A stretch of DNA of 64,000 nucleotides from Bacteroidales bacterium (GTDB taxonomy: Bacteria > Bacteroidota > Bacteroidia > Bacteroidales > F082): contig JAZRNQ010000170.1 of NCBI GenBank assembly GCA_045648285.1, positions 1,450 to 65,449 of the forward strand. Reading direction: 5' to 3'. Below, piece by piece: positions 4,010-64,000 of this stretch; position 1 is the stretch's first letter, and every line of letters begins with the position of its first letter. A program made the position numbers and the translations under genes. A model generated the notes under the pieces. The model was not told where the DNA came from. It did no database searches and saw only the letters and a list, made by a program, of their open reading frames with translations.

Positions 4010-4097
4010 TTTTGGTTTGGATTACAAAAGTATATATTATTTTTTGATAAAAAAAATTTTCTGAGTATCTTTGTTGGCTTTTTAACATAAATTAATT

Positions 4098-5336: not shown

Positions 5337-5340
5337 GAAG

Positions 5341-6846: not shown

Positions 6847-6993
6847 TTTCCAATTTTTTAAAACGAAATAACTACAACACAACCATAATAAAATCTCAAG
6901 TAAAACGAAAACAATCAACAACTTACAAAAAATACAACAAACACCACCCTTTTCGTTTTCTTGGAGATTATTTTACAATCTTTCAATGTTTTC

Positions 6994-25700: not shown

Positions 25701-26214
25701 AGGTGACAGATATACAAAAGGTAATATTGATATCAATCCTTCAAAAATAGAATATGTGCTCAAAGGCTATTTCGGAGGTGTATTCAACACAATAGACAAG
25801 ATGGCGAAAATGGCTGAGACAGCAGCTGGAGAAAGAGAATATGACCCTCAAAATTTCTTATTGCTTAACAGAGTTGTCAAAGCTGGCGACGAGCGTACTG
25901 AATACAGGGCTGTTAATAACGAATATTTCCGATTAAAGAAAGAGCATGACGATCTTAAATCTCGTATTAAAAATTACGAAAATGATACTTATAATGGAAT
26001 ATTCGATTATGCTAACAAAATTGATTTTCTTTATAATTCTCCTGAATATCAAAGATACGAAATCTTTGAACTATACAAAAAAGAAATCGAATCTTTGAAC
26101 GATATGATAAAGAACACTTATGATAATGATGAACGAAAAGAACTTGAAACATATCTCAACGAAATCAAAAAAGAGATGATTGAAGAAATGAACAAGACAC
26201 GCAAACGTGCGTAA
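10771..26214 (+). CDS. Giant polyvalent (multi-effector) virion protein, 5147 aa
   Basis: Uninterrupted 15,444-nt ORF. It contains serial enzymatic motifs (listed as separate sub-features) separated by low-complexity and coiled-coil linkers. It lies between small virion-type genes and the portal gene. Confidence 0.85.
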   Translation: MNEIEVKKLYNALIQKGYTIDQIGNENTFLNNMNDENKRRDLYEYVSSKGNFKIGDYDTYESRLTSSIEQTTDTIAQPSNPVEDVKQVYTPKYTPRTEEVKEIDMITGHKTEYATGFGQGFRQGIKGLGHGIQHFGGEVLNLFTGSTIDEEKALERIAELELDGIDIESAIAPLDKVQRQVYETTLSNGDVQLSGITDEQKQYAQMALEKDAINKTIREYIEKAGSLEEAKSMLAERANEETQGDKWIKQAAKGLAELKPTKGFGAWVGNLAPQMIPAAVSIGVGAVTKSPTLTKGVGMVGMGTMTVSTAGMSMNEAREAGATGLQTWAVGIADGAIEFVSEKIPFNRYTSRLLSGVKKNASNQLADAVTSSPQVRNELERLLQEANKKLGGKLFNGKNVKDFVGDIIAEGASEFTAEALQTITPLIYENPEDYPTIGEILRNGWEGAKAGIFMGSVLGGASKTMEHYQQRNRRKEQGFVDIVEFETEDGYKIGESLGMTDRGVAVITDGKIQYVIPEDIIYDHKFSFEEFDRAELQMENEESFDNGYSLSEQQEMNDAQNMLKVKKAEMIHTFGFTDESDIEAFLGENPIETVAQRRQNGESEESTQTIIDYLNAKATYDGMSQRVSDDIDGQIEQSNALIDSHTNKHTGKIHGAVSKEDGRLVYIVSGNVVPYQDGSGIDLQNSDENIIIRDAETGELKQMSPEFLSSLYDTQDPNEQKEINAQQIREKILSEESNKIDGVVDFNDKEQFLNEVANKIAITIILAQRGLDADYIKTFLGNAQIVENPDGTLTFTDGQNEVVVPKQEIQQQVDANNMQRAVDFNDKAKEMRNAIQQATAATATLSYGMGDNVSLRDTDGNIINGTISMIEDDTYVIDYSDNNGTWHTLDLTKQQLDDMAVERNETGVNDEPVTELSPVDMNNDNTITEQSTTDEGDLTLQSTIDENIPTTQTVTPYIPKDESGNPIYEQADSETAWDALMEDAEGDEIMAGEVAKSMIADKEAELKKLEKSKIKEGKTPAEKMAALKERKAEVEKIKQDIEAWKKIAAVPIHRQIAQQERIRQEEAEAAAQRKADEERLLAERKEAERKEQEKLNGIPDYSEDTPQNARARGYRRVNGHIEERQQPIETIQGKETEIEFSNDARPKGHYAVIDASQLQPSHIQGNRNPLHFLDEAQPKERNDKASIVSAQKIAGNIRPATITTGETAYVGTPTVNTRGEVIQGNSRSDALKLMYGNHNDQAQTYKQYLMDKAEQFGLNPEDVSNMESPVLVRMLDINDEQAITLGQYVAQDTESGGIERIKPKNAVKKMGEDIGSFANILLKSNDEDVSFAELLDQNGVEVLKWMAQKSYITPTQYNSQFDTKGSLTAEAKNDLRGIMYQSIFEGGNTRLEEMFNALPAKAQKAILATAHRDFNSPNSERMIEEIQDSIRAFYALMQDEQFAQAKNLKDATKAVEAWQKQYQMDDVTGEGYLPSEKFSNFALHLAKLYKGEKQSNIQGVFAELYDLIQGTKEDNLFEQADKTPRTLVQAIKEVLNIDYNGQRRNNVLGGDNKTSQQGQHGRTGDVASRERTESGEQSANDSGRTDEDSGSSAFETNRQTENESGDIRTAQTVHQSRSEREGLEQNLDGRRQTDGTGMADDAAGIMETRNDRSDIRVFEEGLDASYNEYSEHSERTRRAAESERLVSLAKLHGMFVPAEVIKTLTGKHPKRTGESFVYIDKEAGKVTKVKDPYAKAAIKSGVQPEDAAFEYLVHNLIFPETAYTFEGISEDMGDVRIVLSQSFIQSKGHPTKEQIAEALAERGLFPEDKYSFGNEFVSVTDVEGDNVILGEDGNLYFIDPIIRFKKPLKEILDNYNRNNNSTLGEQIKSAEKEVNTSPTDKQKEAGNYKKGHVQIGTFNITIEQPKGSVRSGVDANGRKWETTMQNTYGYIRGTEGVDGDHIDVFLSDDIDGWNGSKVFVVDQYNEDGTFDEHKVMLGFNTIEEAESAYLANYEKGWEKKHKIVVSPIHTENFEKWIESSHRKTKPFAEYKSVKSEENRTKNNENRTKSTENSSKVEENSVKDESKNKTIVEQSKKPSSKIEDFGEKIGGARKDVIRKYADKINVNGTTFGSMFPKPDIDKLIEAGLPIDRVAALKSVYDNAKHEFERSKKHRGKERALRETVFYAVFAKGILSGNEDFELHHEGLVFTEVGVKLVKANIALYQAVFDRLGVEYIKTDLSAYAITPLTEETKKKLNLKSLNEHNGKMQESLAKRKGTEPPVYKDGDLINFIGEKYYNPKDQFETLEEAIDTMVERIGKEVKVGEEIKHTPILYWNVDALGRKDYSKIFIGIKVHGHGIVKLMEFKSSNEANSWIDEHDSDFQQMAAAKIEQLKSDKSKPLPKYRIDNIYVRDNNGSIVRYDVYADFGKGIMRPLKSFDIPAKETSQERLRAQSEVYKNEVLPYMNSEEAKQSADEHARLIQQEKESKNRNYSTERKSRERVGRDWRNGKDATPDMFVDMDGNKSVFGFRAVEFGNYVTNKERQQFLNDIYDALMDMSDVLGVSPRALSLGGQLAIAVGARGKSSASGHYEPEKNVINLTKTSGYGILAHEWLHAFDRYFSNYNPSAIYVGGVQYATSEEYKDDMRQEVKDAFAALMDVIKKSDYYKRSMMLGEYWSSDKELAARALQDHIIRKLNERGQKNEFLSNLTATEDWDGEAENYPFPLGEESERIGEAIDNLFSVIEEKVDEKGNTVMYQKGKLVMDAESEAFRRATERTMKQLESIGIDVEIVEDVAIIEKFENRAIRPNFSRSAGIFYSNAKKAVLDIKQDKATPEQWLKMIEKNGGLKASEDRWLGLSDWLKTQQKRKNIDVQYAKEYDGEAKQIAHGIKEGDISSIDLAAVEMVKLVKDGDILIPIPSRTGKATTTLALANRIAELAGKGKVADVLTGKERESLYNIKKEGKELPKASELEFVLKNQDVLNGNNRVVFVDNVMGTGTTLEAAVELIPNATALVYAKDNSTLSDKKTLTKDEILNFINENSIQIEEVEYEENPSSFDELKDEYERLLREEGYDYAQEVMRDRYGDDFDVAFADMGGELVIDNEEAAATLLGSNNIINSTRLQYTTEGLDNKKEIALVVPTIESYNSHDEIHFGDAGDGRAVAWVRFGETTDSDGKRVLVIDEIQSKRHQDGREKGYRNDKVLTARLDALKESAAKVGMTFNADVRGRSLQFLDMEGNPIGTITRKPTDEQSEIMAQVRNVLFTNDGVPSAPFEKNWQELAMKRMLRYAAENGFDKVAWTTGEQQAERYSLSKAVKKTTVSVMSDNTRMVTLDFRHDEGYMDFKQMRVDEKGTIIGGDFTGSQLSDIVGKEFAIKIMSVEAERETFTDNDLRIGGEGMKGFYDKILPSFVSKYTKKWGGKVEETELPETGLSMHSVDVTPQMKEDVMKGQPMFHKGQMSFDFLNQQNTPLSDTRLRKLEEGETSKIERIFTENKNFDFTSGEKIESIDDVAFIFKQLEDESIENSFAVLVKDGKPTVIHLGMGSYTATGLNGSALNVAVERIQPDKIYFIHNHPSGNLTASRQDIELLNRLKSTYGDIFEDGIIINLRSGKFATFNAEEKNIHDEKNIDNAVPVKVYSFNKQVFEKNYDPAETFKIRSSSDVAKFISSHRLGERPKLGILVCNNQLGVVGNVFTPYTKVTKENAKDIAKDIVYYTTSMGGTCAMMFGNANIYEVGSKRISQHVEDISTGSIKLMDYLNMQKDGSYWSASDEGVSFMRTSSGTIYGWTVDGKVYLTKDGINPNTPVHEYSHLWAEALMKNNPFLWSRIVNGLKDTPVWNEVMLDEEYSSIHHNDNLVASEVLSRLSGTENYRRTMEEAQREIESEKGIFAKAEKITIWERVKQALKDFWNWVVKTYGTNNITPEEAVNMTLKDFWNGVKPKGARSIEAASDIANAEEDDEVLYRSDNEDSLNKNKVNYPAQRRQMVEHAENLAKRLHLDNIEIVNSVSGLEGKKKSAKGFYDPKTGKITIVIPNNTSIADIEKTLLHEAVAHYGLRQLFGEHFDTFLDNVYNNADESIRKRIAELAIRKYNYDFRKATEEYLASLAESTNFENAQQSSWWQKVKDFFADMLSKLGFRDFRGVTLTDNELRYILWRSYENLSSKRHKGVFGQAADIAKQYELGVGDYAKSSENEDDVLFRDGDPEIHEKELVRDKYDRRIRTGWYQSKEAMQDSMLSLKEAMKDIAGMEIEDIDGFENAYLGENRLSSVNKAEADAFARILFKPMLDEVAKLAPTAAERQELVDYMMAKHGLERNEYMRQQAMQNGEDANRDFAGLTSLTGFDDITAAEAEAQIMVNEYEQNHDTTELWDNVNAVSKAILSKTYECGLIDKDTFENISNMYEFYIPLRGFEEKTSDEAYAYLSHIHNAFNAPIKKAEGRTSKADDPFAYLQSMAESAIMQGNRNKLVKQRFLNFVLNHPSDLVSISELWLEYDNVDDEWRPVFPDNIDTNDSGEVVEQKMKDFDEKMELLSQNEPDRYKKGRDAIGIPYRVVEKRDLQQHQVIVKRNGRDVVLTVNGNPRLAQALNGQTNPDNDMSGAIGTILRSGEWVNRQLSAFYTTRNPDFIVSNFLRDMLYSNSMAWIKESPNYALRFNRNYMIANPITMKRLLNKYRKGTLDTSDKIEGMFYQFMMNGGETGYANVRDIEQHKNDIRKELRRSNGRLKIGRAFSLLAERFDGLNRAIENCARFAAFMTSKEMGRTTDRAIYDAKEISVNFNKKGSGSKFYGEIGQTVAGNTSSLISGLGRSSYVFWNAAIQGTTNFGRQIKRHPAKAFTGIASMFLLGALVAFLGGDDDDDDNKNSYYNLPEYVRRSNILFSAGKHWISIPLPVEYRAIYGLGELMISTISGKEHLTDSEIAEAIIGQMSQILPLDFMEGGGDLNAVVPSAAKPLWEAYVAEKSWTGLPLYKDTPYNKNMPEWTKAYSSANKHIVNLTASLNEVTGGDRYTKGNIDINPSKIEYVLKGYFGGVFNTIDKMAKMAETAAGEREYDPQNFLLLNRVVKAGDERTEYRAVNNEYFRLKKEHDDLKSRIKNYENDTYNGIFDYANKIDFLYNSPEYQRYEIFELYKKEIESLNDMIKNTYDNDERKELETYLNEIKKEMIEEMNKTRKRA
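11557..11800 (+). other. Giant protein: Gly/Ala/Met-rich hydrophobic (TM-like) region
   Basis: GFGAWVGNLAPQMIPAAVSIGVGAVTKSPTLTKGVGMVGMGTMTVSTAGMSM...WAVGIADGAIEF. Confidence 0.5.
14212..14700 (+). other. Giant protein: ParB/Srx-fold (ddrB-ParB-like) domain
   Basis: GHYAVIDASQLQPSHIQGNRNP...RGEVIQGNSRSDALKLMY. The GNxR box in a ParB-like context is recalled from polyvalent-protein ParB domains. Confidence 0.45.
15820..16310 (+). other. Giant protein: protein-kinase-like fold domain
   Basis: Catalytic-loop-like DVEGDN (D-x4-N, D1821/N1826), followed 10 residues later by YFIDP (DFG-equivalent Asp). Preceded by ...FVYIDKEAGKVTKVKDPY (candidate Lys region). Confidence 0.4.
16411..16860 (+). other. 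Giant protein: inorganic-pyrophosphatase-like domain
   Basis: GNYKKGHVQIGTFNITIEQPKGSVRSG...YGYIRGTEGVDGDHIDVFL. DGDHIDV resembles the family I PPase signature D-x-D-[PE]-x-D-x but has His at the fourth position. Confidence 0.4.
18211..18810 (+). other. Giant protein: zincin metallopeptidase (MPTase-PolyVal-like) domain
   Basis: FGFRAVEFGNYV...LSLGGQLAIAVGARGKSSASGHYEPEKNVINLTKTSGYGILAHEWLHAFD (HExxH at 18535-18549) ...DKELAARALQDHI. Confidence 0.55.
19341..19765 (+). other. Giant protein: phosphoribosyltransferase (PRTase, ComF-like) domain
   Basis: PRPP-loop motif VVFVDNVMGTGTTLEAAV, preceded by ILIPIPSRTGKATTTLALA. It lies between WLGLSDWLK and TLTKDEILNFINENSIQIEEVEY, which looks like an insertion into a linker. 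Confidence 0.55.
21175..21555 (+). other. Giant protein: JAB/MPN (RadC-like) metallopeptidase domain
   Basis: ENSFAVLV...IYFIHNHPSGNLTASRQDIELL (HxHPSG...S..D motif; His3549 at 21415). Confidence 0.65.
22021..22330 (+). other. Giant protein: second HExxH zincin-like motif region
   Basis: GWTVDGKVYLTKDGINPNTPVHEYSHLWAEAL (HEYSH at 22120-22134). Confidence 0.4.
25192..25269 (+). other. Giant protein: C-terminal TM helix followed by a hexa-Asp run
   Basis: AFTGIASMFLLGALVAFLGG then DDDDDD (25252-25269). Confidence 0.6.
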
Positions 26215-53759: not shown

Positions 53760-54030
53760 TGTTCATCTGCCTTTTTAACTCTTTGGATAAAATAAGCTTT
53801 ACTGAACGTCTGGCAGGCATTTCCATTGAATGACCTGCAGAGATATTGCGAACTTTCTTCGCTTTTCTTATCACTTGTCTGAAGGTTGCAAATCCTCTGA
53901 GGTAGATGCTCTCGCCTTTGACAATAGATTCTTCAAAAACCGCAATTACAGCTTCAACTGCCAGTGTCGCTTCTCTGCTTGTAAGTTCTGTTTTTCTGAC
54001 CACTTGGTCGATGATGTCTTGTCTTTTCAT
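53740..54030 (-). CDS. HU-family DNA-binding protein
   Basis: 96 aa. LRGFATFRQVIRKAKKVRNISAGHSMEMPARRSVKL is the arm region typical of HU/IHF. Confidence 0.75.
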   Translation of the reverse strand: MKRQDIIDQVVRKTELTSREATLAVEAVIAVFEESIVKGESIYLRGFATFRQVIRKAKKVRNISAGHSMEMPARRSVKLILSKELKRQMNNGNADD

Positions 54031-54033
54031 AGC

Positions 54034-54630
54034 TTAAATATTTAATGGGTTGAAATAATAGTCAGCATATACATCAATGAACTGCTGGCCTGCATATTCA
54101 GCAAGCTCATTATTTTTGAAGGCGAGCCGAGAACCGCTGCTCGTGTTCGCGTGCGAAGAAGCGTAGCTCGCGCTCGCACAAACGAGACCGCAGTACGCAA
54201 ACGCATTGTAACCCCCACGACCAACGACCCGGCTGGGAGAATCATAGATGTTATTATCAAACTCTTCTTTTGTACATAATCTGAAATACGGATACCAACG
54301 TCTCTCGTCCTGAGTAAATTCAGGTCGCCAGCCTTCATTAAGTGCTTCTGCGATAATACGGAGTTTGCAATATGCTAACAAATCGCAACTAACAGTATTA
54401 TGGTTATTATACTCATATTCATCAACCAACATTTTTGCATGGTTATCTCCATTATCTATTCTTTCATGCAATTCAACCAAAGCATCATCAAATGTTTTTA
54501 TTCGATTTCGTATGTCTAATTGCTTGAACATATCACTGCCAAACATATGTTCAAGCAATTCTTTTTGTTCTCTATTGGCACTTTTATATGCACTAAAAAC
54601 TGTTTCTTTTTTAATTTCTATGTTATTCAT
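54034..54630 (-). CDS. Hypothetical phage protein
   Basis: 198-aa ORF, co-directional. Confidence 0.45.
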   Translation of the reverse strand: MNNIEIKKETVFSAYKSANREQKELLEHMFGSDMFKQLDIRNRIKTFDDALVELHERIDNGDNHAKMLVDEYEYNNHNTVSCDLLAYCKLRIIAEALNEGWRPEFTQDERRWYPYFRLCTKEEFDNNIYDSPSRVVGRGGYNAFAYCGLVCASASYASSHANTSSGSRLAFKNNELAEYAGQQFIDVYADYYFNPLNI

Positions 54631-54634
54631 GATT

Positions 54635-56104
54635 TTAAAAATTAATTGGTTTAAGTAATATGTGATGTGATTCTACAAACTGATCTATAAGCTCTTCAAA
54701 ATACATCTCATCTGTAGGGATGTCGTCATCCGAGTTCATTATCTCGTTGGCTATGGACTTCTTCTTATGTATGAGGCTATATATGGTCCTGTCTATTGTG
54801 TCGTTTCCGAGCAGGTAATAGCAAGTAACATTGTCTTTTTGTCCTATGCGGTGCGCTCTGTCTTCGCACTGGCAGCAATCTGCATATGTCCATGGAAGCT
54901 CCAGGAAAGCCACCGATGAAGATGATGTAAGGGTCAGTCCGACACCAGCGGCCTTGATGGAACAGATGATTAACATACATTCAGGATTGTTTTGAAACGC
55001 ATCGACTGAATTTTGTTTGCTTATGGCGGTGTCACGTCCTGTTACCGTCACCGCTTTAGGGAATGCCTTCTGCAACATGTCAACCACTTCGTGCAATGCG
55101 CAGAACACAATGAGTTTCTTTCCGTTAGCCAAATGGTTTTTAATGAAGTCTATTGCTTGTCTTACCTTGCCTTTCGTCGCCAGCGAGCGCAAGGTCATAA
55201 ACTTTACAAGAGCTTCCATTCTCATCTTGCGACGTATGTCCCTGTCGGTGCATTCTGTATATTGGCGAAGATATTCCGCAAGGTCGTTGACGGCAAGACT
55301 GTATTCCTCTTCATTGGAAATCTCGACATACAGGTCTATTCTCGTCTTGTCGGGAAGCTGTGGCAGAACCTTGGACTTCTCACGTCTGATCATGCAGTTG
55401 TCATAAAGTCTTTTTGACAATTCAGACAACGGCACGGCTGGCTGAGCGTTCTTGTCTTTAGGGTCTGTACAGAAGTCAGCGACGAATTGGCTGTATCCTC
55501 CGAAGTCTTTAAGCCTGTTCATGATGGAAAGCTGAGCGACCAAATCGTCAGGACGGTTCACTACAGGAGTACCCGACAGCATTATCACATACTCTTTTCC
55601 GACTGATATTCCTTTCGCGAAAATGGTCTGCTGTGCGCCTGCATCTTTAACTCTGTGGCTTTCGTCAATGATGATAGACTTGAATACTCTGATGAAGTCT
55701 GAGAAAACGACATCTTTCAATCTGAATGTCTTGCCTTGGCTCTTGATGTCCCATACAAAATACTTTTTCAAGCTCTCGTAGTTGACTATCGCCACATGAT
55801 GAACACCCATCTTCATAAGGTATCCGAATGTCGCCTTGGTATTGTTGTTTAACACCAAAGCCGACTTATCCGTAAACTTCTCGAACTCCCTCTGCCAGTT
55901 AATCTTCAACGAAGAAGGACATATCACAAGGCATGGATAAGCATTCGCAGTATCGACAATTCCGATAGATTGCAATGTCTTGCCAAGTCCCGGTTCGTCG
56001 CCTATGATGAGACGCTTCTTGTCAAGACCGTACAAGATGCCTTCCTGCTGATACTGATATGGCTCTACTTTAAGATTATGTTTAAGAGTGCTGTTCATTT
56101 TCAA
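54635..56104 (-). CDS. SNF2-family helicase
   Basis: Motif I DEPGLGKTLQ, motif II DESHRVKD, LSGTPVVNRPDDL, and motif VI QCEDRAHRIGQ. Confidence 0.85.
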   Translation of the reverse strand: MKMNSTLKHNLKVEPYQYQQEGILYGLDKKRLIIGDEPGLGKTLQSIGIVDTANAYPCLVICPSSLKINWQREFEKFTDKSALVLNNNTKATFGYLMKMGVHHVAIVNYESLKKYFVWDIKSQGKTFRLKDVVFSDFIRVFKSIIIDESHRVKDAGAQQTIFAKGISVGKEYVIMLSGTPVVNRPDDLVAQLSIMNRLKDFGGYSQFVADFCTDPKDKNAQPAVPLSELSKRLYDNCMIRREKSKVLPQLPDKTRIDLYVEISNEEEYSLAVNDLAEYLRQYTECTDRDIRRKMRMEALVKFMTLRSLATKGKVRQAIDFIKNHLANGKKLIVFCALHEVVDMLQKAFPKAVTVTGRDTAISKQNSVDAFQNNPECMLIICSIKAAGVGLTLTSSSSVAFLELPWTYADCCQCEDRAHRIGQKDNVTCYYLLGNDTIDRTIYSLIHKKKSIANEIMNSDDDIPTDEMYFEELIDQFVESHHILLKPINF

Positions 56105-56775
56105 TTGTTTTTAGGAGTTAAAAGCCACCATCTGAATGCGAGTTCCTCATACTTCTCACGACCTCTGCTGTAGTTCTCGTCACCTCGATTAAAGAACTTC
56201 TTAAATATTTTGAAATTCTTCTTCGATATAGCGTAGATGAAATCCTTGTCGCTTCCAGCTATATCCATATACCATGCACGAGAACGGTCCCAATCGAAGA
56301 AGTCTATTGCATTCTCAAACTCTTCCACTGTAGTGGCGAATGTGGTCTTGAGGTCACCTCCGAATCCGAATGACGGCATCCACCAGTCCCATTTGCAGCG
56401 TGTATCTAATGTGAACTCGAAGTCGCAATATGAGAATCGCTGAGCATGGTTTATCATTATCTTCTGCGTGTCTGATGTTTCCAGTACTTTGGCAAGGAAA
56501 GGATCCTTCTTCGCTTCCATACGCAATGCCCTGTTCATTTCCTTACCCCAAGCGAATTCCTCATCGGTGTACTGCACATCATCAACCTTATAGAGACAAT
56601 AATCCACACGTTCAGGTTCTGTCACGATGGCATCAACCAAGCTGCCGAGACGGAACGCCTTCTCCTTGTCGCCGAACTGCATACGAGGATAAAGCATGTT
56701 CTTGAGTTCGGTGAGGTCAGAGTTGCTGACCTCACTTCTCTCGTAGTAATTCGTAGGATTATTTATGGCATTCAT
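56101..56775 (-). CDS. PD-(D/E)XK nuclease-like protein (DUF3799-type, putative recombination exonuclease)
   Basis: GSLVDAIVTEP ... GGDLKTT. Positioned near the RecT-like gene. Confidence 0.5.
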   Translation of the reverse strand: MNAINNPTNYYERSEVSNSDLTELKNMLYPRMQFGDKEKAFRLGSLVDAIVTEPERVDYCLYKVDDVQYTDEEFAWGKEMNRALRMEAKKDPFLAKVLETSDTQKIMINHAQRFSYCDFEFTLDTRCKWDWWMPSFGFGGDLKTTFATTVEEFENAIDFFDWDRSRAWYMDIAGSDKDFIYAISKKNFKIFKKFFNRGDENYSRGREKYEELAFRWWLLTPKNN

Positions 56776-56778
56776 GGG

Positions 56779-57987
56779 TTACTTGGCTTTTACATCGTCA
56801 ACGTATATTATATTCTTGTCTTCAATGAAGACATCTTCTTTGGCGAGTTTCTCACAGAATGTGATCTGCTTCTTGAATATCTTGCACAGCTCTTCCAGTT
56901 CAAGATTCACACCTTCTCTTGTGAACCACATATTGATGATAGGCACTATGCCGTTGGCATTGATAATCTTAATCTTCTTTGAAACCTTGACCGATGTCTT
57001 CGCTACAGGCTGAGCGGCCTCCGCCATGGCAAACAGACTGTTCATCTCGTTCATCTGCTGAGCGGCCTCCGCCTTCTGCTGTTGTTCAAGTTCTCTCGCC
57101 TTGCGTTCATCTTCCATTTTAGCGGCTTCTTTGACATTGTTGGTCTCCATTGCTTCCTTTATAAGAACTGCTTCCTCTGGACTAGACTTCGCTATCTTTT
57201 CAAGATTCATCTTCTTGGATGGAAGACGCTCCTGAACATATACTTTTGTAGATTCAATCTCATAGAGATACTGTTCACTGAATTCCTTATAAAGCTCTTT
57301 CTTGACGTCGATTTCAATCTGTTTTAACTCGTCAATGTTAATTGGTATATTAGTTGGATTTTTTATAGTGTGTTTTAGATTCTTGTACCATTCCAATGGA
57401 AGTTCAGTCTGGAAGTCGTCAATGAAATCATAAGTTCTCTGATAGTTTTCAAGAGTCACATTATTATCTAATTCCATCAAGGTCTTACAGCTGCTGTTAA
57501 TAGCTTCACTGACCAATCGTCTGTAATCATCTTTGACGGATTGGATATAATTGTTCTTGACAGCTATTATTCGCTGACGTTCCTCCTCTTCCTTTCTTAG
57601 GCGTTCAGCTGCTTCAAACTTCTGTTTTGCGTATGCGTTGCGCAATGCCTGAAGACGGAAAGGAAGTGAGCCTGTTTTGGTTTTGTCGATGTCGTTTTCA
57701 AGTGCAGTGAAAACCTTCTTAATGTCATCAAACAATCTGGTGACAGGAGTTCTCGTATCGTTGATTTTTTTAAGAGTAGTTCCGACTCTCACGAGATAAT
57801 CAGCCACCTGTGCGTCGAGTTCATCGTTCAATCCGCCGTTCTCTTCTATTTTCTTCAAGAGTGCGTTGCCGAATTCGAGACATTTGTCGTGAGAGATCTT
57901 TCCGGTCTCGTATGCCTTAGGCGCAGATTGAACTATCGCCTGTATGTTTTCCTGCTTTACTAATGCTGTTGATTCTTGTGTTGCCAT
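56779..57987 (-). CDS. Hypothetical coiled-coil phage protein
   Basis: 402-aa ORF between the RecT-like and nuclease genes. Confidence 0.45.
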   Translation of the reverse strand: MATQESTALVKQENIQAIVQSAPKAYETGKISHDKCLEFGNALLKKIEENGGLNDELDAQVADYLVRVGTTLKKINDTRTPVTRLFDDIKKVFTALENDIDKTKTGSLPFRLQALRNAYAKQKFEAAERLRKEEEERQRIIAVKNNYIQSVKDDYRRLVSEAINSSCKTLMELDNNVTLENYQRTYDFIDDFQTELPLEWYKNLKHTIKNPTNIPINIDELKQIEIDVKKELYKEFSEQYLYEIESTKVYVQERLPSKKMNLEKIAKSSPEEAVLIKEAMETNNVKEAAKMEDERKARELEQQQKAEAAQQMNEMNSLFAMAEAAQPVAKTSVKVSKKIKIINANGIVPIINMWFTREGVNLELEELCKIFKKQITFCEKLAKEDVFIEDKNIIYVDDVKAK

Positions 57988-58006
57988 GACTTTTACTTTT
58001 TAAGTG

Positions 58007-58960
58007 TTAGAATGCTCCGTCGTATTCTCCTTTGTTATCTTCTTCTATAATGACACCTGTTGACGTATCTACTGCAGGTCCGAACGCTTCCTGCTTTGCT
58101 GGTGCCTGTGATTCCACTCCGCCGTATGGGTCAAATCCGTCTTGCTGTTCTTGCAATTCCGGCATCTCGGATTCAAGCATCATACCCTTGCCAATCTTCA
58201 GCTTAGGATAAGTCTTGAAAGCATGCTTGATACATTTGGCGATGAGGAAACCGGTATCTATCTGACCTTTATCTACTGTATATAAACTATTTGCGCCTCT
58301 TTTCACCATCTGACCGGTTTTGAAATCCTTATACATTCCATTATTTTTTTCAGAGTAATACTCAAGACGCTTCCAGTCAACCTCTGTCATGACCGCATAG
58401 TCAACGCTGCCGTCAGCTCTTGTTATTTTTATAAAGCATGCAATTATTTTGTTAGATGTTCTTGGGAACGCTGACATATAGTTGACCACCTTATGACCGT
58501 TCTGTTCTCCGAACTGGAATGTGTCGCCTTCATAGACAATGATAGGATTGTCGGCATGACGTATCTGTCCTGCTCTTGTTCTCAATACGAGTTCACCATA
58601 TGCGCTGATAGTAAGATTACATATTTTCTCATATATAACATTACCATTGCGATCTGTGCCGATGTTGTTGCTTTTTGCTAATAGGTAGCACAATGCCTGT
58701 GAGCCAGGAGCGAGTGTAAGACCCTTGACGGCAAGGTCGATGAAGCAGTAATAGACGGATATAGCTGTGCATTGCAGCAAATCTTTCTTGTCTCTAAGCT
58801 GCTGGTTGAAGTAGATGGCTTCACGTTCATAGACATGTTCGCCGCCTTCCTGCCATATAGAATTGTAAACACTGATAAATTGTTCTCTGACGAGTTCGTT
58901 TCTGACGACATCGCCTGCTGACATCTGTTTCAGCTCATTCATTAAGTTTGATGCGCTCAT
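58007..58960 (-). CDS. RecT-like single-strand annealing protein (putative)
   Basis: 317 aa. Called on context (nuclease partner, early operon), overall RecT-like length and an acidic C-terminal tail. No decisive motif. Confidence 0.45.
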   Translation of the reverse strand: MSASNLMNELKQMSAGDVVRNELVREQFISVYNSIWQEGGEHVYEREAIYFNQQLRDKKDLLQCTAISVYYCFIDLAVKGLTLAPGSQALCYLLAKSNNIGTDRNGNVIYEKICNLTISAYGELVLRTRAGQIRHADNPIIVYEGDTFQFGEQNGHKVVNYMSAFPRTSNKIIACFIKITRADGSVDYAVMTEVDWKRLEYYSEKNNGMYKDFKTGQMVKRGANSLYTVDKGQIDTGFLIAKCIKHAFKTYPKLKIGKGMMLESEMPELQEQQDGFDPYGGVESQAPAKQEAFGPAVDTSTGVIIEEDNKGEYDGAF

Positions 58961-58996
58961 AATAATTTGTTTTTAAATGTTAGTTAATCATTGTCT

Positions 58997-59123
58997 TGGG
59001 GTTCAGGGCAGAATCGAACCGCCTCCTTATGGTCTGCGTGAAAAAGTCATGAGTAATCAACAGAACAGAAATAAATCAATAAAAAAACCGCTTTCCATAT
59101 ATGCACCATTACACCTCAGAACC
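58997..59123 (-). ncRNA. tRNA-like element with canonical T-arm but a 62-nt insertion in place of the anticodon loop
   Basis: Minus strand: GGTTCTG-AG-GTGT-AATGGT-GCAT-A-TATGG-[62 nt]-CCATA-AGGA-GGCGG-TTCGATT-CTGCC-CTGAACC-CCA. The acceptor pairs 6/7, the D-loop has GG, the anticodon stem pairs 5/5, and the T-loop is near consensus. Position 8 is A, not U. Confidence 0.35.
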
Positions 59124-59132
59124 TGTTGTTTA

Positions 59133-59429
59133 TTATTGGTTGTTGTTAAAAGGCTTTTTACGTCTCACATACGCTTCCGCTTTCTCGTCTATCTCCTTAT
59201 TGCTCGCCTTCTTATTTTTAAGAAGCCAACTCTCTATCTCAGACTTCTTGAAATACAGCCTGCCATCTCTCGGCTTGTAGTGCGGTATCTGACGCTTCGA
59301 TGTCATATCATACAGCGTGCTTTTGGCAAGACCTGTGAACAATGCGCACTCTTCAATGTTGAGGACTTCTTTAGAACCTATCAGTATCATCTTCTCGATG
59401 CTGTCTAACTTTGCCATTATCTTGCTCAT
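59133..59429 (-). CDS. Excisionase-type HTH (HTH_17/MerR-like) DNA-binding protein
   Basis: VLNIEECALFTGLAKSTLYDMTSKRQIPHYKPRDGRLYFKKSEIESWL. Confidence 0.75.
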   Translation of the reverse strand: MSKIMAKLDSIEKMILIGSKEVLNIEECALFTGLAKSTLYDMTSKRQIPHYKPRDGRLYFKKSEIESWLLKNKKASNKEIDEKAEAYVRRKKPFNNNQ

Positions 59430-59646
59430 AAATTTCTTTCTTTATTCTGTTTTCATTATCATTAAATTCTTTGATTTCAGCCCATGATAAAAGAACTATC
59501 GATCCCAAGAGAGAAAGGAATGTAACGGCGAATGAAATTCCATTAATTCCTATCGTTCCTATTGCGATGTTCTTTATCACCAATACCAGCACACAGAGGT
59601 ATGCCATCAGGCAGAGAACAAATTGAAGACGCTTCCAGAATTTCAT
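59371..59646 (-). CDS. Small membrane protein
   Basis: ATG at 59646 (MKFWKRLQFVLCLMAYLCVLVLVI...). Two TM segments. Confidence 0.45.
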   Translation of the reverse strand: MKFWKRLQFVLCLMAYLCVLVLVIKNIAIGTIGINGISFAVTFLSLLGSIVLLSWAEIKEFNDNENRIKKEIYEQDNGKVRQHREDDTDRF

Positions 59647-59656
59647 AAACACCACC

Positions 59657-59842
59657 TTACTTTATTCTTGTTACTACCAGACATTGTCTTTCCCTGTCTC
59701 TTTTTCTCTTATACTTACGTCCGTACTTGAATTGTGTACGATCTATTATGTTCGATACGGAATCGTATGTTATGCTTGGGAACTCGATCTGCTCCCCAAC
59801 TTCCATCATCACGATTTGTTCTGTAAAATTGATTCTTGCCAT
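59657..59842 (-). CDS. Hypothetical small protein
   Basis: 61-aa ORF, co-directional. Confidence 0.4.
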   Translation of the reverse strand: MARINFTEQIVMMEVGEQIEFPSITYDSVSNIIDRTQFKYGRKYKRKRDRERQCLVVTRIK

Positions 59843-59860
59843 TTTTATGTTTTTTAATTA

Positions 59861-60115
59861 TTACTTGCACTCCTTTTTGGCGTGTTCTGCCGCATGTATC
59901 GAAGAGACTATCATCTCTCTTAACTCTTCGCTTTTAACCATACCCATTGACAATGCGGACAAGGCATTAATATTATTTCCCAATACAACCGTACCGCCGC
60001 CGGTGTCGTCACCAAAGAATATCATAAGTCCGTAATTCTTACCCAACGCTCTCTCCATCTGGTCATTGAAGATTTCAATTGTCCGTTCGATTCTTTCAAC
60101 TCTTTCGTCTTTCAT
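59861..60115 (-). CDS. Hypothetical small protein
   Basis: 84-aa ORF, co-directional. Confidence 0.45.
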   Translation of the reverse strand: MKDERVERIERTIEIFNDQMERALGKNYGLMIFFGDDTGGGTVVLGNNINALSALSMGMVKSEELREMIVSSIHAAEHAKKECK

Positions 60116-60126
60116 AGTGTTTTGTT

Positions 60127-60567
60127 TTATTTGTTAATCCATTTCTTGACTCTGTTAATGTATGTTGGAGGTATGTAATCCAACTTATAAGATCCATTCT
60201 CCAATTCACTTTTCTTCTGTCTAAGTTTCTCTATCCTTTCCGCATGAGATTTACTTACATTTCCGAAAAGATCGTCATTCACTATCGTATTCTCACTTTT
60301 CTTCAACTCACCTTTACAATGCTTTAAAAGGCCTTTCATTTTCTCTTTCACATAATCATCACCGCACCGAACATTTTGTGGACCTATTATCAATTCGACC
60401 TTATTCTTAGGATTAGAAACCTTTATACGAGCTGCCAAATATTCAAAATACCACTTCCATTTATCTATAAGCGGTACAGACATATTGTATCTGTAATACA
60501 CTGTTTCAAATGGATGAGCACCTTGATAGACTAGTATTTTTACCGCTATGCCGTTATTTTTTATCAT
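60127..60567 (-). CDS. Hypothetical phage protein
   Basis: 146-aa ORF, co-directional. Confidence 0.45.
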   Translation of the reverse strand: MIKNNGIAVKILVYQGAHPFETVYYRYNMSVPLIDKWKWYFEYLAARIKVSNPKNKVELIIGPQNVRCGDDYVKEKMKGLLKHCKGELKKSENTIVNDDLFGNVSKSHAERIEKLRQKKSELENGSYKLDYIPPTYINRVKKWINK

Positions 60568-60603
60568 AATTTTACTCGTTAGTTGCCATGGTCTTGATTT
60601 TAG

Positions 60604-60801
60604 TTATTGACGACTCATTTCAGCAGCTGTAACTGTGATTGAAAGCAATTCCATTTGCAATGCTATCTCACGACCTTCAAGATTTAATTCCGAAAGTTTT
60701 TTGCTATCATTATTGAGGATTCTTGCAGCTTTATGCACCAACATGCCTAACTCTTTCAATTCCTCTAATGACAATCTTGATAATTCTTCTCTGTTACTCA
60801 T
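60604..60801 (-). CDS. First gene of the leftward early operon (cro position), helical
   Basis: 65-aa ORF divergent from the repressor gene. No HTH recognised. Confidence 0.45.
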   Translation of the reverse strand: MSNREELSRLSLEELKELGMLVHKAARILNNDSKKLSELNLEGREIALQMELLSITVTAAEMSRQ

Positions 60802-60945
60802 GATTTCTAATGTTTTTCTTGTTTGTTTAATGTTTATTGTTTAACTTTGGACTGCAAAAGTAGTGTTTATTGAACATATATGCAAGTTTTTTGGACATTA
60901 TTTTTATAAAAAATTAAACTTTTTTGAACGTAAATTTATAAATCT
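60802..60945. promoter_or_regulatory. Divergent lysis/lysogeny switch region with overlapping candidate -7 boxes and repeated half-sites
   Basis: TAACTTTG (60842-60849, plus strand) and TACTTTTG (complement of 60855-62), both matching TAnnTTTG. TTTGGAC at 60846-52 and 60890-96. TTGAAC at 60870-75 and 60924-29. Confidence 0.35.
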
Positions 60946-61317
60946 ATGGATTTCAAGCTGTTAAACAAACTCGTAAACGAAAGTAAATTGAACAAAGCAC
61001 AGATTGCAGAAATGGCAAATATGTCAAGAACAACCCTTGACAACGCCTTAAATGGCGCTGACATCAAAGTTTCTACCATAGAGAACCTTGCTAAAGTACT
61101 TGGAGTTAGCGCAAGTATCTTCTTCGGTGGAGATAGTTCAATAAGCGAAGAAAACCTAAACATGTACGAAAGAGAAATCCAAAGACTGCAAAGTTTATTG
61201 GACAGTCAGAAAAAGTCCACTAAAGTTGTCGTTGAGCTTGATGTAACACAAGATGAATTTATAAAGATGGGACTAAAAGATAAGGTTATCCAGATATTGA
61301 ACAGAGAGGAGGATTGA
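60946..61317 (+). CDS. cI-like XRE-family HTH repressor (no S24 peptidase domain)
   Basis: LNKAQIAEMANMSRTTLDNALNGADIKVSTIENLAKVLGVSASIFFG, followed by a short helical C-terminal part. Confidence 0.7.
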   Translation: MDFKLLNKLVNESKLNKAQIAEMANMSRTTLDNALNGADIKVSTIENLAKVLGVSASIFFGGDSSISEENLNMYEREIQRLQSLLDSQKKSTKVVVELDVTQDEFIKMGLKDKVIQILNREED

Positions 61318-61319
61318 TA

Positions 61320-62063
61320 ATGGATACCATTGATGACGAAATTAAAAGAGTAAAAGAATTAGAAAATATATACAATTATAATGTAAATAAAAGTCACGCC
61401 AATTCACAAGAAAGCATAAGTTCTTACAATGAGTGGTATAGTGTCGCTTTAGTTTTGTTCAGAAAACACATCCATAGAGACGACCCGGATATGCAAATAT
61501 TCTCTAATGTTGACAATAGCGGTAATGGTAATACATTAAGAGATAATTACAAAAAGATATGTGCCATTTATAAAGTTATGATTGAACGTATCAAATCTTC
61601 TGATATAACAAAACCTATGAATAACAAAAATATATTTATTGTACACGGGCATGATAACGCCATTAAATTAGAGGTCGCTAGACTTATTGAAAAAATTGGA
61701 TATAAAGCAATTATTCTTCACGAACAACCCGATGCAGGAAGAACTATTATTGAGAAACTTGAAGAGAATATTTCGAATTCATGTTTTGGCATTGTGATTT
61801 ATACTGGATGCGACGAAGGTAGATGTAGTGGTGAAACAGAATTACGAAAAAGAGCTCGTCAAAATGTAGTGTTTGAACATGGCTATCTGCGAGCAAAATT
61901 AGGTCCCAATCGTATTTGCTCTTTATATGAAGAAAATGTTGAATTACCAACAGATTTAAGCGGAGTATTATATAAACCAATTGACAAAAATGGTGCATGG
62001 AAATACGAAGTTGCCAAGGAAATGAAAGCTGCAGGTCTTGAAGTTGATATGAACAATATATGA
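61320..62063 (+). CDS. TIR-like nucleotide-binding domain protein (COG4271 / CAP12-PycTIR-type domain) with an unknown N-terminal domain of about 105 aa
   Basis: NIFIVHGHDNAIKLEVARLIEKIGYKAIILHEQPDAGRTIIEKLEE...FGIVIYTGCDEG...RARQNVVFEHGYLRAKLGPNRICSLY..VELPTDLSGVLY..IDKNGAWKYEVAKEMKAAGLEVD. The ATG is 2 nt after the repressor stop, with GGAGGA upstream. Confidence 0.7.
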   Translation: MDTIDDEIKRVKELENIYNYNVNKSHANSQESISSYNEWYSVALVLFRKHIHRDDPDMQIFSNVDNSGNGNTLRDNYKKICAIYKVMIERIKSSDITKPMNNKNIFIVHGHDNAIKLEVARLIEKIGYKAIILHEQPDAGRTIIEKLEENISNSCFGIVIYTGCDEGRCSGETELRKRARQNVVFEHGYLRAKLGPNRICSLYEENVELPTDLSGVLYKPIDKNGAWKYEVAKEMKAAGLEVDMNNI

Positions 62064-62100
62064 AACTTGTGTTAACGGTTAAACTAATTGAAAAATAAGT

Positions 62101-62817
62101 ATGTGTAAAAATAAAAAGGGCATTTTTCCAATCATTCTTGGAATTATAAATTTTGCTTTATTAATTCCATTATTATGCATGCATTTCCCACGAATTATCG
62201 ATTCTAATTTAGGATTTGATTACATGGGTGTTATTGTTGGCGTTTTGTCTCTTCTTGTTACAGTTCTTGTCGGATGGAATATCTTCAATACTTTAGAATT
62301 CAAAAAGGAACTTGAACAGATTAAGCAACAATTAGAAGAAAAAGAGAAGACGTTAAAAGAACTAAAAGAAGAAATAGAGAAGACGTTAAAAGAACTAAAA
62401 GAAGAAAAAGAGAAGACGTTAAAAGAACTAAAAGAAGAAATAGATGACAATTTCAAGGAGTATTCATGTAAAGGATATGAAATATTAGCAGATATAAGCA
62501 AAGAGTTTATCATAACATCCGTACCAAATTTAAAAAATACCGGCAAAGAATTAAGCTTATTCAATATAATAAGACATATTGTTAATACAATATGTTTTTA
62601 CGAACAAGCAGGAAAATACAAAGATGCTGATGATTATATCGATTTAATGGTTGATATTATTCCTAAAACAAAATACGATGCACTTTTGCCAAAATACAAA
62701 AACGAGATTATGAATAAGATAAAAACCATTTCTAACCCTAATAAGTTAGAAAAATACATAAAACTATCCGCTTATGTATTTACAGAAGATAAAAAACCAA
62801 GCACTCATGAGCAATGA
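62101..62817 (+). CDS. 2-TM protein with repeat-encoded coiled coil and helical C-terminal domain
   Basis: The N-terminus has two hydrophobic helices (IFPIILGIINFALLIPLL, GVIVGVLSLLVTVLVGW), followed by 3.3 copies of EEKEKTLKELK. Confidence 0.55.
   Translation: MCKNKKGIFPIILGIINFALLIPLLCMHFPRIIDSNLGFDYMGVIVGVLSLLVTVLVGWNIFNTLEFKKELEQIKQQLEEKEKTLKELKEEIEKTLKELKEEKEKTLKELKEEIDDNFKEYSCKGYEILADISKEFIITSVPNLKNTGKELSLFNIIRHIVNTICFYEQAGKYKDADDYIDLMVDIIPKTKYDALLPKYKNEIMNKIKTISNPNKLEKYIKLSAYVFTEDKKPSTHEQ
62335..62444 (+). repeat. 33-bp tandem repeat, 3.3 copies, in frame within the 2-TM protein gene
   Basis: gaagaaa(a/t)agagaagacgttaaaagaactaaaa at 62335, 62368 and 62401, plus a partial copy at 62434. 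Confidence 0.9.
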
Positions 62818-63377
62818 CACCCCTCAAAGAAAACTTAAAAAAATCCAGGTTCAGCCTAATTGCTTTGCTTGTTTCACTAACATTTACAGCAACTGCATTT
62901 GCAAGTACATATGTATGGGATATAGAATACGGATATCCCTGTAGTATCTTTATGGCCTCTGGAGCCATATTATTGCTTATAGCATATATCATCGATAAAG
63001 AATGTATAATTAACTCTCGTCTTCCATTTATCCAAAGCTGCAATAATAAAGTTCCAAAATTAAGCAGTACTGGCGGTATCGGTACACAGTTCGTTGAACC
63101 TGACAATCTGAGAAGATACAAAGAAGATGGCACCCAGTATAAAGTCAGATACGCATTTTTTGAATTTTTCGGATTGCCAATATTTCCACTTGGGTGTTTT
63201 GCTACCGAACAAACATTTTTCAACATGAGATACAAAACAACAACAACATATTACACGATATACGGAAAACAAAAACAATACGCTTGCGAATTGGCTTATA
63301 TTTATTTGAGAGGTTGGGGTATTGGAATTTTTATAATCGGCATTATAGTTTCACTTATCAACTTTTCTGCGAACTAA
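62814..63377 (+). CDS. Multi-pass membrane protein
   Basis: 187 aa with 3-4 hydrophobic segments. ATGA overlap with the previous gene. Confidence 0.5.
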   Translation: MTPLKENLKKSRFSLIALLVSLTFTATAFASTYVWDIEYGYPCSIFMASGAILLLIAYIIDKECIINSRLPFIQSCNNKVPKLSSTGGIGTQFVEPDNLRRYKEDGTQYKVRYAFFEFFGLPIFPLGCFATEQTFFNMRYKTTTTYYTIYGKQKQYACELAYIYLRGWGIGIFIIGIIVSLINFSAN

Positions 63378-63436
63378 CGCCCTACCCTTCCTCATACCTA
63401 TTCCACCAAAGATAAAAATTTAAAAAGAAAAGAAAT

Positions 63437-63874
63437 ATGGAACTAAAAGACTTTGTGAAAAACGTGATAAAGGATATAACGACGGCGATAGAGGAATGCC
63501 AAGACGAATTATCACCCAAAGCGTCGGTCGTGCCATTCTTGGGAAGCAAAGACCAGAATCCTAACGTTATAAGAACAGTATTAGGATATGCTCAGATTAA
63601 CAACATCGACTTCGACATCGCACTTACAACAGAGACACAGGAACAGACATCATCAGGCATATCTGCAGGAATACGGGTATTCGACATCATGAGACTTGGA
63701 GGCGAGAATAAAGATATGAATCAGAACATAGCCCAATGCGTATCAAGAGTAAAATTTACGATTCCTGTTGTCTATCCCCATTCGGAAGTGTCGATTCAGG
63801 CGACTTTGGCGCAAAACAAACCGCAACGCCCCACATACGGAGAAGAGACGAATCAGAACCAGTCCTCCTTATAA
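63437..63874 (+). CDS. Trypco2-like small protein (putative)
   Basis: An N-terminal helix (MELKDFVKNVIKDITTAIEECQDE), then beta-rich INNIDFDIALTTE...GIRVFDIMRLGGENK...VSRVKFTIPV. This resembles the trypsin-co-occurring domain 2 pattern as I recall it. Confidence 0.35.
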   Translation: MELKDFVKNVIKDITTAIEECQDELSPKASVVPFLGSKDQNPNVIRTVLGYAQINNIDFDIALTTETQEQTSSGISAGIRVFDIMRLGGENKDMNQNIAQCVSRVKFTIPVVYPHSEVSIQATLAQNKPQRPTYGEETNQNQSSL

Positions 63875-64000
63875 GGCACCCCTTGGGTCAGATAGTTGTA
63901 AATGGTTTGGGCTTCAATACAGGATTCAAGACTTTCATCAGCTTTGCAGTTATCAAAATGCTTAGCGACAAATTTAAGACACCATCTGCGGAGCAGGAAT
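63853..64000 (-). CDS. C-terminal fragment of a leftward gene entering from beyond the window
   Basis: The open frame reads ...FLLRRWCLKFVAKHFDNCKADESLESCIEAQTIYNYLTQGVPYKEDWF*. Convergent 22-nt overlap with the previous gene. Confidence 0.3.
   Translation of the reverse strand, partial: FLLRRWCLKFVAKHFDNCKADESLESCIEAQTIYNYLTQGVPYKEDWF

Follow-up and report, generated by a model that had tools for sequence, protein, structure and literature searches.

Introduction

SpbK (YddK), encoded on the Bacillus subtilis element ICEBs1, is a single-gene abortive-infection NAD-degrading enzyme (NADase) whose products are ADP-ribose (ADPR) and cyclic ADP-ribose (cADPR) (PMC12847820, PMC11984713). It comprises a four-helix bundle (residues 1-94), an 18-residue linker and a TIR domain, of which the TIR domain alone was built in the 9phb structure (residues 111-266) (PMC12847820). 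The α3-α4 loop of its N-terminal domain docks on the clip domains of the dodecameric SPβ portal YonE, which brings the TIR domains together in active assemblies (PMC12847820, PMC11984713). TIR domains of the PF10137 family form a NAD-depleting effector clade, with CAP12-type TIRs turning into NADases through filament formation, and clade-6 TIRs are characterized by a CC-loop hairpin and a catalytic glutamate (bioRxiv 10.64898/2026.04.30.722052). Type VII Thoeris, validated in 2025, is composed of a ThsB TIR protein and the SLATT effector ThsH, linked by a cADPR signal; the same study left aside stand-alone TIRs and TIRs in CBASS, Pycsar and pAgo contexts (Yirmiya et al., bioRxiv 10.64898/2025.12.03.692087). 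PDCs are single- or multi-gene candidates defined by their embedding in BREX, DISARM and type I restriction-modification (RM) loci, and PDC-S35 is a single-gene candidate (Payne et al., bioRxiv 10.1101/2024.01.29.577857). Here we examine a TIR gene that lies directly behind the presumed repressor of a prophage in a 64,000-nucleotide (nt) stretch of Bacteroidales DNA (contig JAZRNQ010000170.1, positions 1,450 to 65,449; hereafter the window).

Lysogeny modules of other phages carry defence and exclusion genes: rexAB lies beside cI in lambda, lactococcal and streptococcal phages have sie genes between repressor and integrase, and P2 and P4 possess hotspots. By analogy with these, the window cargo adjoins the repressor and would occupy a variable slot between conserved phage genes, with alternative candidates; a further likeness is membrane proteins between repressor and integrase. 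Neither rexAB, the sie genes nor the P2/P4 hotspot genes have a sequence relationship to the window genes, and the window hotspot lies in an apparently Bacteroidales prophage lineage. An earlier note, made from the window alone, had grouped the TIR gene with the two membrane-protein genes that follow it as one defence or exclusion module of undescribed architecture. The explanation we favour, probable by analogy, is that the TIR protein is an abortive-infection NADase of the SpbK-like, stand-alone kind, expressed in the lysogen as prophage cargo and triggered by a protein.

The TIR protein belongs to the PDC-S35 family

The TIR gene (61320-62063, + strand, ATG start) encodes a protein of 247 amino acids (aa). 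Five PADLOC PDC-S35 models match it, PDLC05007 at E 5.3e-74 (residues 57-247), PDLC05005 at E 5.4e-69 (residues 15-247) and three more at 3e-62 or weaker, and phrog_16442 matches at 1.6e-51. The protein is a full-length match to the hidden Markov model (HMM) of PDC-S35, with the same two-domain layout, the same single-gene status and no structural difference; the window copy is prophage cargo behind a repressor and does not lie inside a BREX, DISARM or RM locus. The PADLOC run that the earlier note had proposed thus places the TIR protein in a catalogued single-gene candidate family. With this match, and with an N-terminal domain found in proteins that the spbK model matches, the architecture cannot be called undescribed: the locus is no new kind of system, and its TIR gene is a member of a catalogued candidate family.

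The AlphaFold model (mean confidence, pLDDT, 88.8) is composed of four helices (residues 4-95), a linker and an α/β domain (residues 104-237). The linker (residues 96-103; 61605-61628, + strand) is flexible, with pLDDT below 50 at residues 97-99. The TIR domain (residues 104-237; 61629-62030, + strand) is delimited by the model, Pfam and invariant columns. Within it, PF10137 (CAP12-PCTIR_TIR) covers residues 104-222 at E 6.8e-38 and 129.8 bits (cut-off 24.7), spanning profile positions 1-118 of 119. TIR_2 reaches E 0.01, under its cut-off, and the NCBIfam Cap12 models score 32-34 bits against a cut-off of 450. A profile of 39 sequences matches Cap12 among the PDB sequences at 1.9e-10 and 3e-9 and PycTIR at 3e-3. 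Foldseek comparison of the α/β domain with the PDB returns TIR domains as all top matches, including 7un8 (SfSTING) and 9lmq (TIR-STING), both at E about 1e-6, and SPARTA TIR-APAZ, with matches confined to the TIR part of the protein. The earlier note had recognized a TIR-like domain of the COG4271/CAP12-PycTIR pattern from motifs, all of which are present in the translation; profile and structure searches bear this out, and the CAP12/PycTIR-type fold stands far above chance.

Invariant positions occur in the 39 aligned sequences (F106, V108, H109, G110, R178, A179, R180, N182, V183, F185, E186 and G188), and the RARQNVVFEHG segment of the window protein aligns with R(D)NVVFEFG of Cap12. E186 (nt 61875-61877) is the predicted catalytic glutamate, because it is invariant and aligned with the Glu of the Cap12 FEFG motif. 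The model also predicts a CC-loop β-hairpin, formed by strands 165-167 and 176-178. By sequence and fold, the nearest TIR domains are those of Cap12 (TIR-STING) and PycTIR, with both the NVVFE(F/H)G motif and the CC-loop hairpin in common; by analogy, NAD+ depletion by a filament or oligomer is the chemistry to be expected of the window protein. Unlike them, it has no match to a STING or cyclic nucleotide monophosphate (cNMP)-binding sensor, and no cyclase partner is among the listed window hits. The statement of the earlier note that the window holds no cyclase, CD-NTase or ThsA partner agrees with the PADLOC and Pfam results for the 57 other window open reading frames (ORFs), among whose top 25 families per scan none is found, a strong though not exhaustive negative.

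The family is large: one search gave more than 7,700 matches, and species-representative genomes from many phyla contain at least 421 stretches; a homologue is present in only 5 of 50,697 deposited phage genomes. Literature searches gave no paper on PDC-S35 by name and, for COG4271 and PF10137, no functional work on the architecture. Two viral contigs each carry two nearby same-strand PF10137-type TIR genes, L037 at 3832-4674 and 5019-5705 and L046 at 4914-5621 and 6005-6880, which are either paralogues or stacked cargo.

The N-terminal four-helix domain is found in proteins matched by the spbK model

The N-terminal domain (residues 1-95; 61320-61604, + strand) is predicted to fold into four helices (residues 4-24, 30-50, 56-62 and 70-95). 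The most conserved N-domain motif of the family, D-N-S-G-N-G-Y (here NVDNSGNGN, residues 63-71, nt 61506-61532), forms the predicted α3-α4 loop. Searching residues 1-99 against 1.8 billion representative proteins reveals 95 clusters that carry the domain. In 51 sampled clusters it is accompanied by TIR_2 (32 clusters) or PF10137 (4 clusters), and the PADLOC spbK model matches 37 of the 51 proteins. This model spans the ~270-aa members end to end, N-domain included, as in P0152, whose residues 2-269 align with profile positions 50-307 of 308. Aligning the N-domains of PF10137-type (PDC-S35) and SpbK-type proteins with hhalign gives a probability of 99.95% and E 7.8e-38 over 98 columns, and a profile of the TIR_2 proteins with the N-domain matches B. 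subtilis SpbK (PDB 9phb) at 8.7e-34. The domain that the earlier note could not recognize is, on this comparison, a four-helix bundle that heads SpbK-model proteins.

SpbK and the window protein are both single proteins on mobile elements, each with an N-terminal four-helix bundle of ~95 residues, a brief flexible linker and, at the C terminus, a TIR domain; the window N-domain is of the same family as the N-domains of the proteins that the spbK HMM spans end to end. They differ in the TIR domain, which is PF10137 (CAP12/Pycsar) in the window protein and TIR_2-like in SpbK (spbK HMM against the window protein, E 0.16), and direct sequence similarity to SpbK's own N-domain is not detected with an N-domain profile against 9phb. 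Because this profile misses 9phb, homology to the N-domain of SpbK itself is indirect, running via the PADLOC spbK HMM and the shared architecture. Literature searches on SpbK homologues found nothing beyond the SpbK papers.

The sequence comparison indicates that the N-domain is a module shuffled between two TIR clades, TIR_2-like and PF10137. Neither Pfam nor PADLOC matches it to STING, SAVED or a cNMP-binding module, and Foldseek matches only the TIR part of the protein. The four-helix domain would serve as a trigger-sensing or docking module, and its occurrence suggests a portable sensor. Rare non-TIR fusions also occur among the proteins found with the N-domain (P0145-P0232), namely Hypoth_Ymh (two members) and metallophosphoesterase, DUF4062 and TPR arrays (single members). 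Some of these proteins match PADLOC Aga_HEPN or PD-Lambda-3_B, and several carry an added N-terminal extension of 90-170 aa.

The TIR gene parts from the membrane-protein genes

Below the TIR gene lie genes for a 238-aa coiled-coil protein with two transmembrane (TM) segments (the 2-TM protein) and for a 187-aa multi-pass membrane ORFan. We compared the window with homologous contigs and genome stretches (loci numbered from L001), covering the contexts of four TIR relatives, seven 2-TM relatives (one without a record) and the sole homologue of the 187-aa ORFan. Among these contexts the exact trio occurs only in the window's own contig. The co-occurrence expected of one module, as the earlier note had proposed, is thus not seen, and the genes are separable both ways.

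The TIR gene adjoins the 2-TM gene in L001-6, L010 and L150/151; in L150/151, repressor, TIR and 2-TM genes are 92% identical in nucleotide sequence to the window, with a different third gene. An identical TIR protein is encoded with the 2-TM gene in L010 and without it in L009, where the TIR gene is the last before host genes. In L007/8, a TIR gene with 53% identity follows an insertion-sequence (IS) transposase, with no helix-turn-helix (HTH) protein and with unrelated membrane proteins downstream. TIR genes without the 2-TM gene amount to L009, L007/8 and about 120 other loci. The 2-TM gene, in turn, occurs with the same repressors and without TIR in L011-14, L059-66, L147 and L149. In L065/66, which have no TIR gene, a window-type repressor (95.5% nt identity) immediately precedes a 2-TM variant (local hmmsearch 5e-54), and the 187-aa gene (96% nt identity) comes next, and in L059-61 an HTH gene is directly followed by the 2-TM gene. 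L011/12 and L062-64 combine an L001-type repressor (94-99% aa identity) and the same 2-TM gene with other cargo in between, composed of two small ORFs in L011/12 and of a 206-aa DUF2971 protein (L062:4326-4946), matched by PADLOC PDC-S31 at 7e-19, in L062-64.

Family-wide neighbour statistics cover 44 viral and 80 genome loci, with 121 diverse loci in the set. A same-strand downstream ORF with at least one TM segment is present in 12 of 54 cases, with 17% of all ORFs as the background. No recurrent neighbour is found in these 121 loci, with no neighbour cluster above 4-5 closely related loci, and there is no HTH enrichment upstream of TIR relatives in 69 loci. Neighbours of family members include BrxL, AbiEii-like ATPases and integrases. 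The TIR gene is very probably independent of the membrane genes, and the three-gene architecture is an accident of mosaic prophage structure. These data show that neither the TIR nor the 2-TM gene needs the other for its retention, and conditional cooperation is compatible with them.

Downstream of TIR relatives, L010:1540-3399 encodes a 619-aa FRG-domain protein and L007:5661-6533 a Bro-N-like protein. A conserved protein of ~80 aa recurs in L007, L010 and L013 (30-39% identity).

A mosaic cargo slot behind the repressor

A mosaic block (61308-62282, + strand; blastn), which takes in the TIR gene and the initial 182 nt of its neighbour, the 2-TM gene, is 97.4% identical to L001. Beyond this block, L001 and the window are 80-85% identical or not alignable, and their repressor genes are unrelated. 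L001, L011, L013 and L149 share the 5' segment of the 2-TM gene at 97-99% identity. Window positions 60782-60862 (~80 nt), in the divergent promoter region, are likewise 97-99% identical in L001 and L011 despite an unrelated repressor and otherwise 80-97% identity. By their sequence conservation both segments look like recombination anchors, and 60782-60862 may be either such an anchor or a shared regulatory site.

Several sister loci retain only parts of the TIR gene. L147 carries a deletion corresponding to window positions 61311-61890 (580 nt), which leaves the 3' 173 nt of the gene (L147:559-735), and L152 has a 180-nt internal deletion (L152:632-709). The last ~48 nt of the TIR gene are retained in L011 (4916-5000) and L149 (3810-3860); in L011 a G-to-T change creates a stop codon, and a lipoprotein-like ORF thus ends in ...KEMKAAGL, derived from the TIR relic. 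The 2-TM gene is intact beside all of these relics and the pseudogene (L147, L149, L011 and L152). These alignments indicate repeated loss of the TIR gene in this lineage. Across sister prophages the slot contains a PDC-S35 TIR gene, PDC-S31, small ORFs, relics or nothing. Because a PDC-S31 protein replaces the TIR protein in L062-64, the slot, bounded by the repressor gene and the 5' end of the 2-TM gene, appears to act as a defence-cargo hotspot.

The two membrane proteins

The gene for the 2-TM protein (62101-62817, + strand), defined by the ORF list, hydropathy and alignments, encodes TM segments at residues 5-30 and 37-65 according to a hydropathy scan. The model (pLDDT 83.9) shows TM2 running into a long helix that extends to about residue 146, followed by a variable, weakly TPR-like C-terminal helical bundle. 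The family is small, with 23 clusters, and its N-terminal TM hairpin is invariant at D40, Y41, G43, G47, T54, G58, W59 and N60. A 33-nt tandem repeat (62334-62444, + strand; 3.4 copies, 96% matches) encodes heptad-like EKTLKELKEEI units in the coiled coil, and homologues differ by whole-repeat insertions or deletions, so that the length of the stalk varies. No 2-TM relatives are found in viral contigs.

The resemblance to SLATT-type effectors suggested by the earlier note finds no support in Pfam or fold. The Pfam families listed for the window protein and for the 23 family members include no SLATT family and are coiled-coil and TM noise only (DUF4446, DivIC, ZapG-like and TPR_21), and Foldseek against the PDB returns nothing below E 0.18, the best match being TPR-like. 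We therefore reject the 2-TM protein as a SLATT protein. In this prophage lineage the 2-TM gene belongs to the conserved part of the lysogeny module, separate from the TIR gene, and by position and topology its product may be of the superinfection-exclusion type.

The 187-aa protein (62814-63377, + strand; ORF list and hydropathy) possesses three TM segments in the hydropathy scan. The two TM segments of the 238-aa protein, the multi-pass topology of the 187-aa protein and the overlap of the two genes agree with the description in the earlier note. Among 5.8 billion proteins, the 187-aa protein has one homologue cluster (95% identity), and the two contigs read from it (L065/66) are TIR-less prophages. 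The ORFan is found only with the repressor type of the window. It is an accessory gene without a link to the TIR gene, possibly also of the exclusion type.

Prophage setting of the locus

Directly upstream of the TIR gene lies the gene for a 123-aa Xre/cI-type HTH protein (60946-61317, + strand), the presumed prophage repressor by its PF01381 match (1e-7), its matches to PHROG transcriptional regulator and repressor families, and its position; NCBIfam Xre_ParS_antitoxin matches weakly (E 0.011). The stop codon (TGA) of the HTH gene precedes the TIR ATG at 61320 by 2 nt (...GAT TGA TA ATG...), and an in-frame TTG at 61314 is a possible alternative start. A gap of 37 nt separates the TIR and 2-TM genes, and the 2-TM and 187-aa genes overlap by 4 nt. 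The four ORFs and the 2-nt spacing are as the earlier note gave them.

A divergent intergenic region (60802-60945), the presumed promoter and operator, separates this rightward operon from leftward early genes, among them those for DNA methyltransferases, an SNF2-type helicase and a RecT-like protein. Beyond these on the left lie genes with other phage functions, including a P22-like portal, a capsid protein of SU10 type and an amidase. The rightward gene set is a prophage lysogeny module, with the HTH gene in the classical repressor position. A terminator scan found no intrinsic-terminator-like site between the genes of the rightward operon. We infer co-transcription from gene spacing, because the promoter scan covered sigma-70-type sites only and is uninformative for Bacteroidota-type promoters. 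Expression in the lysogen and a role in defence, both claimed by the earlier note, are plausible given the adjacency to the repressor, the divergent arrangement and the lack of a terminator in that scan; the coupling to a repressor does not extend to the family and is specific to this lineage.

Window positions 54000-64000 have no megablast match among the 50,697 phage records. L001 is flanked by the host genes glnS, OEP and TM1506, and L086 is a metagenome-assembled genome of Prevotella. In L001 (4002-4655, - strand; also in L002-L006 and L013) the repressor has a divergent neighbour that encodes a pentapeptide-repeat protein, whose length varies from 186 to 217 aa across near-identical contigs with the number of ADLSG repeats; at the matching position, the window has only a 65-aa ORF (60604-60801). 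On the 3' side of the module, positions 63437-63874 hold a 145-aa ORF without a family match, whose 90% cluster is represented on dozens of contigs, some as long as 98 kb, and is far commoner than the module genes. The GC content climbs from ~0.30-0.35 to 0.44 near 63500, and identity to L065 stops at 63480; a module or prophage boundary may lie near 63480-63500. Rightward of the module, no integrase is seen up to the window end. Upstream of the prophage structural genes, positions 10771-26214 (+ strand) form one unbroken ORF of 5,147 aa.

Discussion

A mechanism for the TIR protein can be built by analogy with SpbK and CAP12-type TIRs. In the lysogen, the protein would be produced from the repressor operon and held inactive. 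On infection by another phage, its N-terminal bundle would dock on a multimeric phage protein, which in the case of SpbK is the clip domain of the portal. Docking would cluster the TIR domains head-to-tail, creating composite active sites around E186, and NAD+ would be hydrolysed, leaving the infected cell no longer able to support phage growth. By this analogy a protein trigger is a tentative proposal, to which we give somewhat less than an even chance; NADase activity and abortive infection would follow from the likeness to SpbK and to the effector clade.

Several points weigh against this interpretation. To our knowledge, the CAP12-type TIRs characterized so far are switched on by nucleotide ligands through a fused sensor, and not by proteins. 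Up to E 10, the N-domain-only profile has no match to 9phb, and the alignment of the full-length profile with this structure begins only at about helix α4. In about 4 of about 12 distinct lineage contexts the gene directly upstream of the 2-TM gene is an intact TIR gene, a decayed or partial TIR copy lies there in two further contexts of this lineage, and unrelated TM proteins are encoded downstream of full-length TIR relatives in L007, L086 and L067. Otherwise diverged phages, moreover, share the 975-bp block, which runs from the TIR gene into the 5' end of the 2-TM gene, at 97% identity. The adjacency, the shared block and the TM genes in these three loci leave some room for a link between TIR and membrane proteins. 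A literature search gave no NADase or defence phenotype for any PDC-S35 member, and PDC-S35 is one of 145 candidates listed as untested (PADLOC-DB v2; Payne et al., bioRxiv 10.1101/2024.01.29.577857).

Such a link would take its strongest form in a coupled system, in which a nucleotide signal is made or answered by the TIR protein and the membrane-disrupting effector is the 2-TM protein, alone or together with the multi-pass protein, as in type VII Thoeris. The tight packing of the genes (2 nt, 37 nt and a 4-nt overlap) without a terminator, the TIR gene beside the 2-TM gene in L001-6, L010 and L150/151, and the 97%-identical block all fit this arrangement, and operons that pair TIR with SLATT now count as a validated type of defence (bioRxiv 10.64898/2025.12.03.692087). 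The gene order, a TIR gene followed by one for a 2-TM protein, is only superficially alike, however: the window 2-TM protein has no detectable SLATT domain, with no such Pfam family listed for the 23 members and no fold match, and the TIR domain falls in the NAD-depleting effector clade PF10137 and is not of the ThsB type. The TIR and 2-TM genes part in both directions, even between near-isogenic prophages, the TIR gene decays where the 2-TM gene stays intact, the 187-aa ORFan also occurs without TIR, and TM neighbours are not enriched family-wide; these observations largely refute the coupled system, which we consider improbable. A looser variant, a long shot in our judgement, would make the 2-TM protein a shared membrane output or scaffold for whichever cassette lies upstream (PDC-S35 TIR, PDC-S31/DUF2971 or small ORFs), maybe gated by ADPR or cADPR. 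It is based on the invariant TM hairpin (D-Y-x-G...G-W-N) joined to a fast-varying cytoplasmic helical domain. If true, the 2-TM protein would represent an effector family that is new and distinct from SLATT, within a modular prophage defence operon that swaps its cassettes.

The remaining explanations concern the TIR gene and its regulator or ligand. RES toxins of Xre-RES pairs are NADases, and the 2-nt spacing and the weak match of the HTH protein to Xre antitoxin-type models (Xre_ParS_antitoxin, E 0.011) would suit a similar toxin-antitoxin or addiction pair, with the Xre-type protein as antitoxin or regulator of a constitutively toxic TIR NADase that stabilizes the prophage. We regard this as quite unlikely, since window-type repressors head TIR-less operons (L065/66 and L147), 98%-identical TIR genes lie behind an unrelated repressor (L001), a 53%-identical one follows an IS transposase without an HTH protein (L007/8), upstream HTH genes are not enriched over 69 loci, and the HTH gene occupies the classical repressor position. 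The kinship of the TIR domain with the Cap12 and PycTIR effectors would also suit an orphan effector, activated in trans by a cyclic (oligo)nucleotide from a host or phage cyclase elsewhere; this is very improbable, as the N-domain is a four-helix bundle without a STING, SAVED or cNMP-binding match in Pfam or PADLOC and is common to proteins matched by the spbK model, SpbK itself being protein-triggered, and as no cyclase is listed in the window and no neighbour recurs in 121 loci. Some phages encode enzymes or sponges that act on NAD-derived signals, and a phage-borne gene might likewise benefit the phage, for instance if a NADase or ADPR-cyclase-type product broke down or imitated immune signals of the host or reprogrammed its metabolism. 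We give this an equally slim chance: the gene lies in the lysogeny operon and not among the early lytic genes, family members occur in chromosomal defence contexts (BREX, DISARM and RM, with BrxL and AbiEii-like neighbours), just 5 of the 50,697 deposited phage genomes encode a homologue, and repeated loss in sister prophages is typical of defence cargo.

With a stand-alone, SpbK-like abortive-infection NADase as the preferred explanation, the locus ties the candidate family PDC-S35 to the mechanistically understood SpbK through a shared N-terminal four-helix module. PDC-S35 thereby gains a concrete hypothesis, in which a multimeric phage protein would cluster the TIR domains and so bring about NAD+ depletion. 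The small and unannotated 2-TM family of 23 clusters is flagged as a conserved lysogeny-module gene. The slot lies in a gut-type prophage lineage, and its occupied, swapped, decayed and empty natural alleles offer handy material on the turnover of defence genes in Bacteroidales lysogens.

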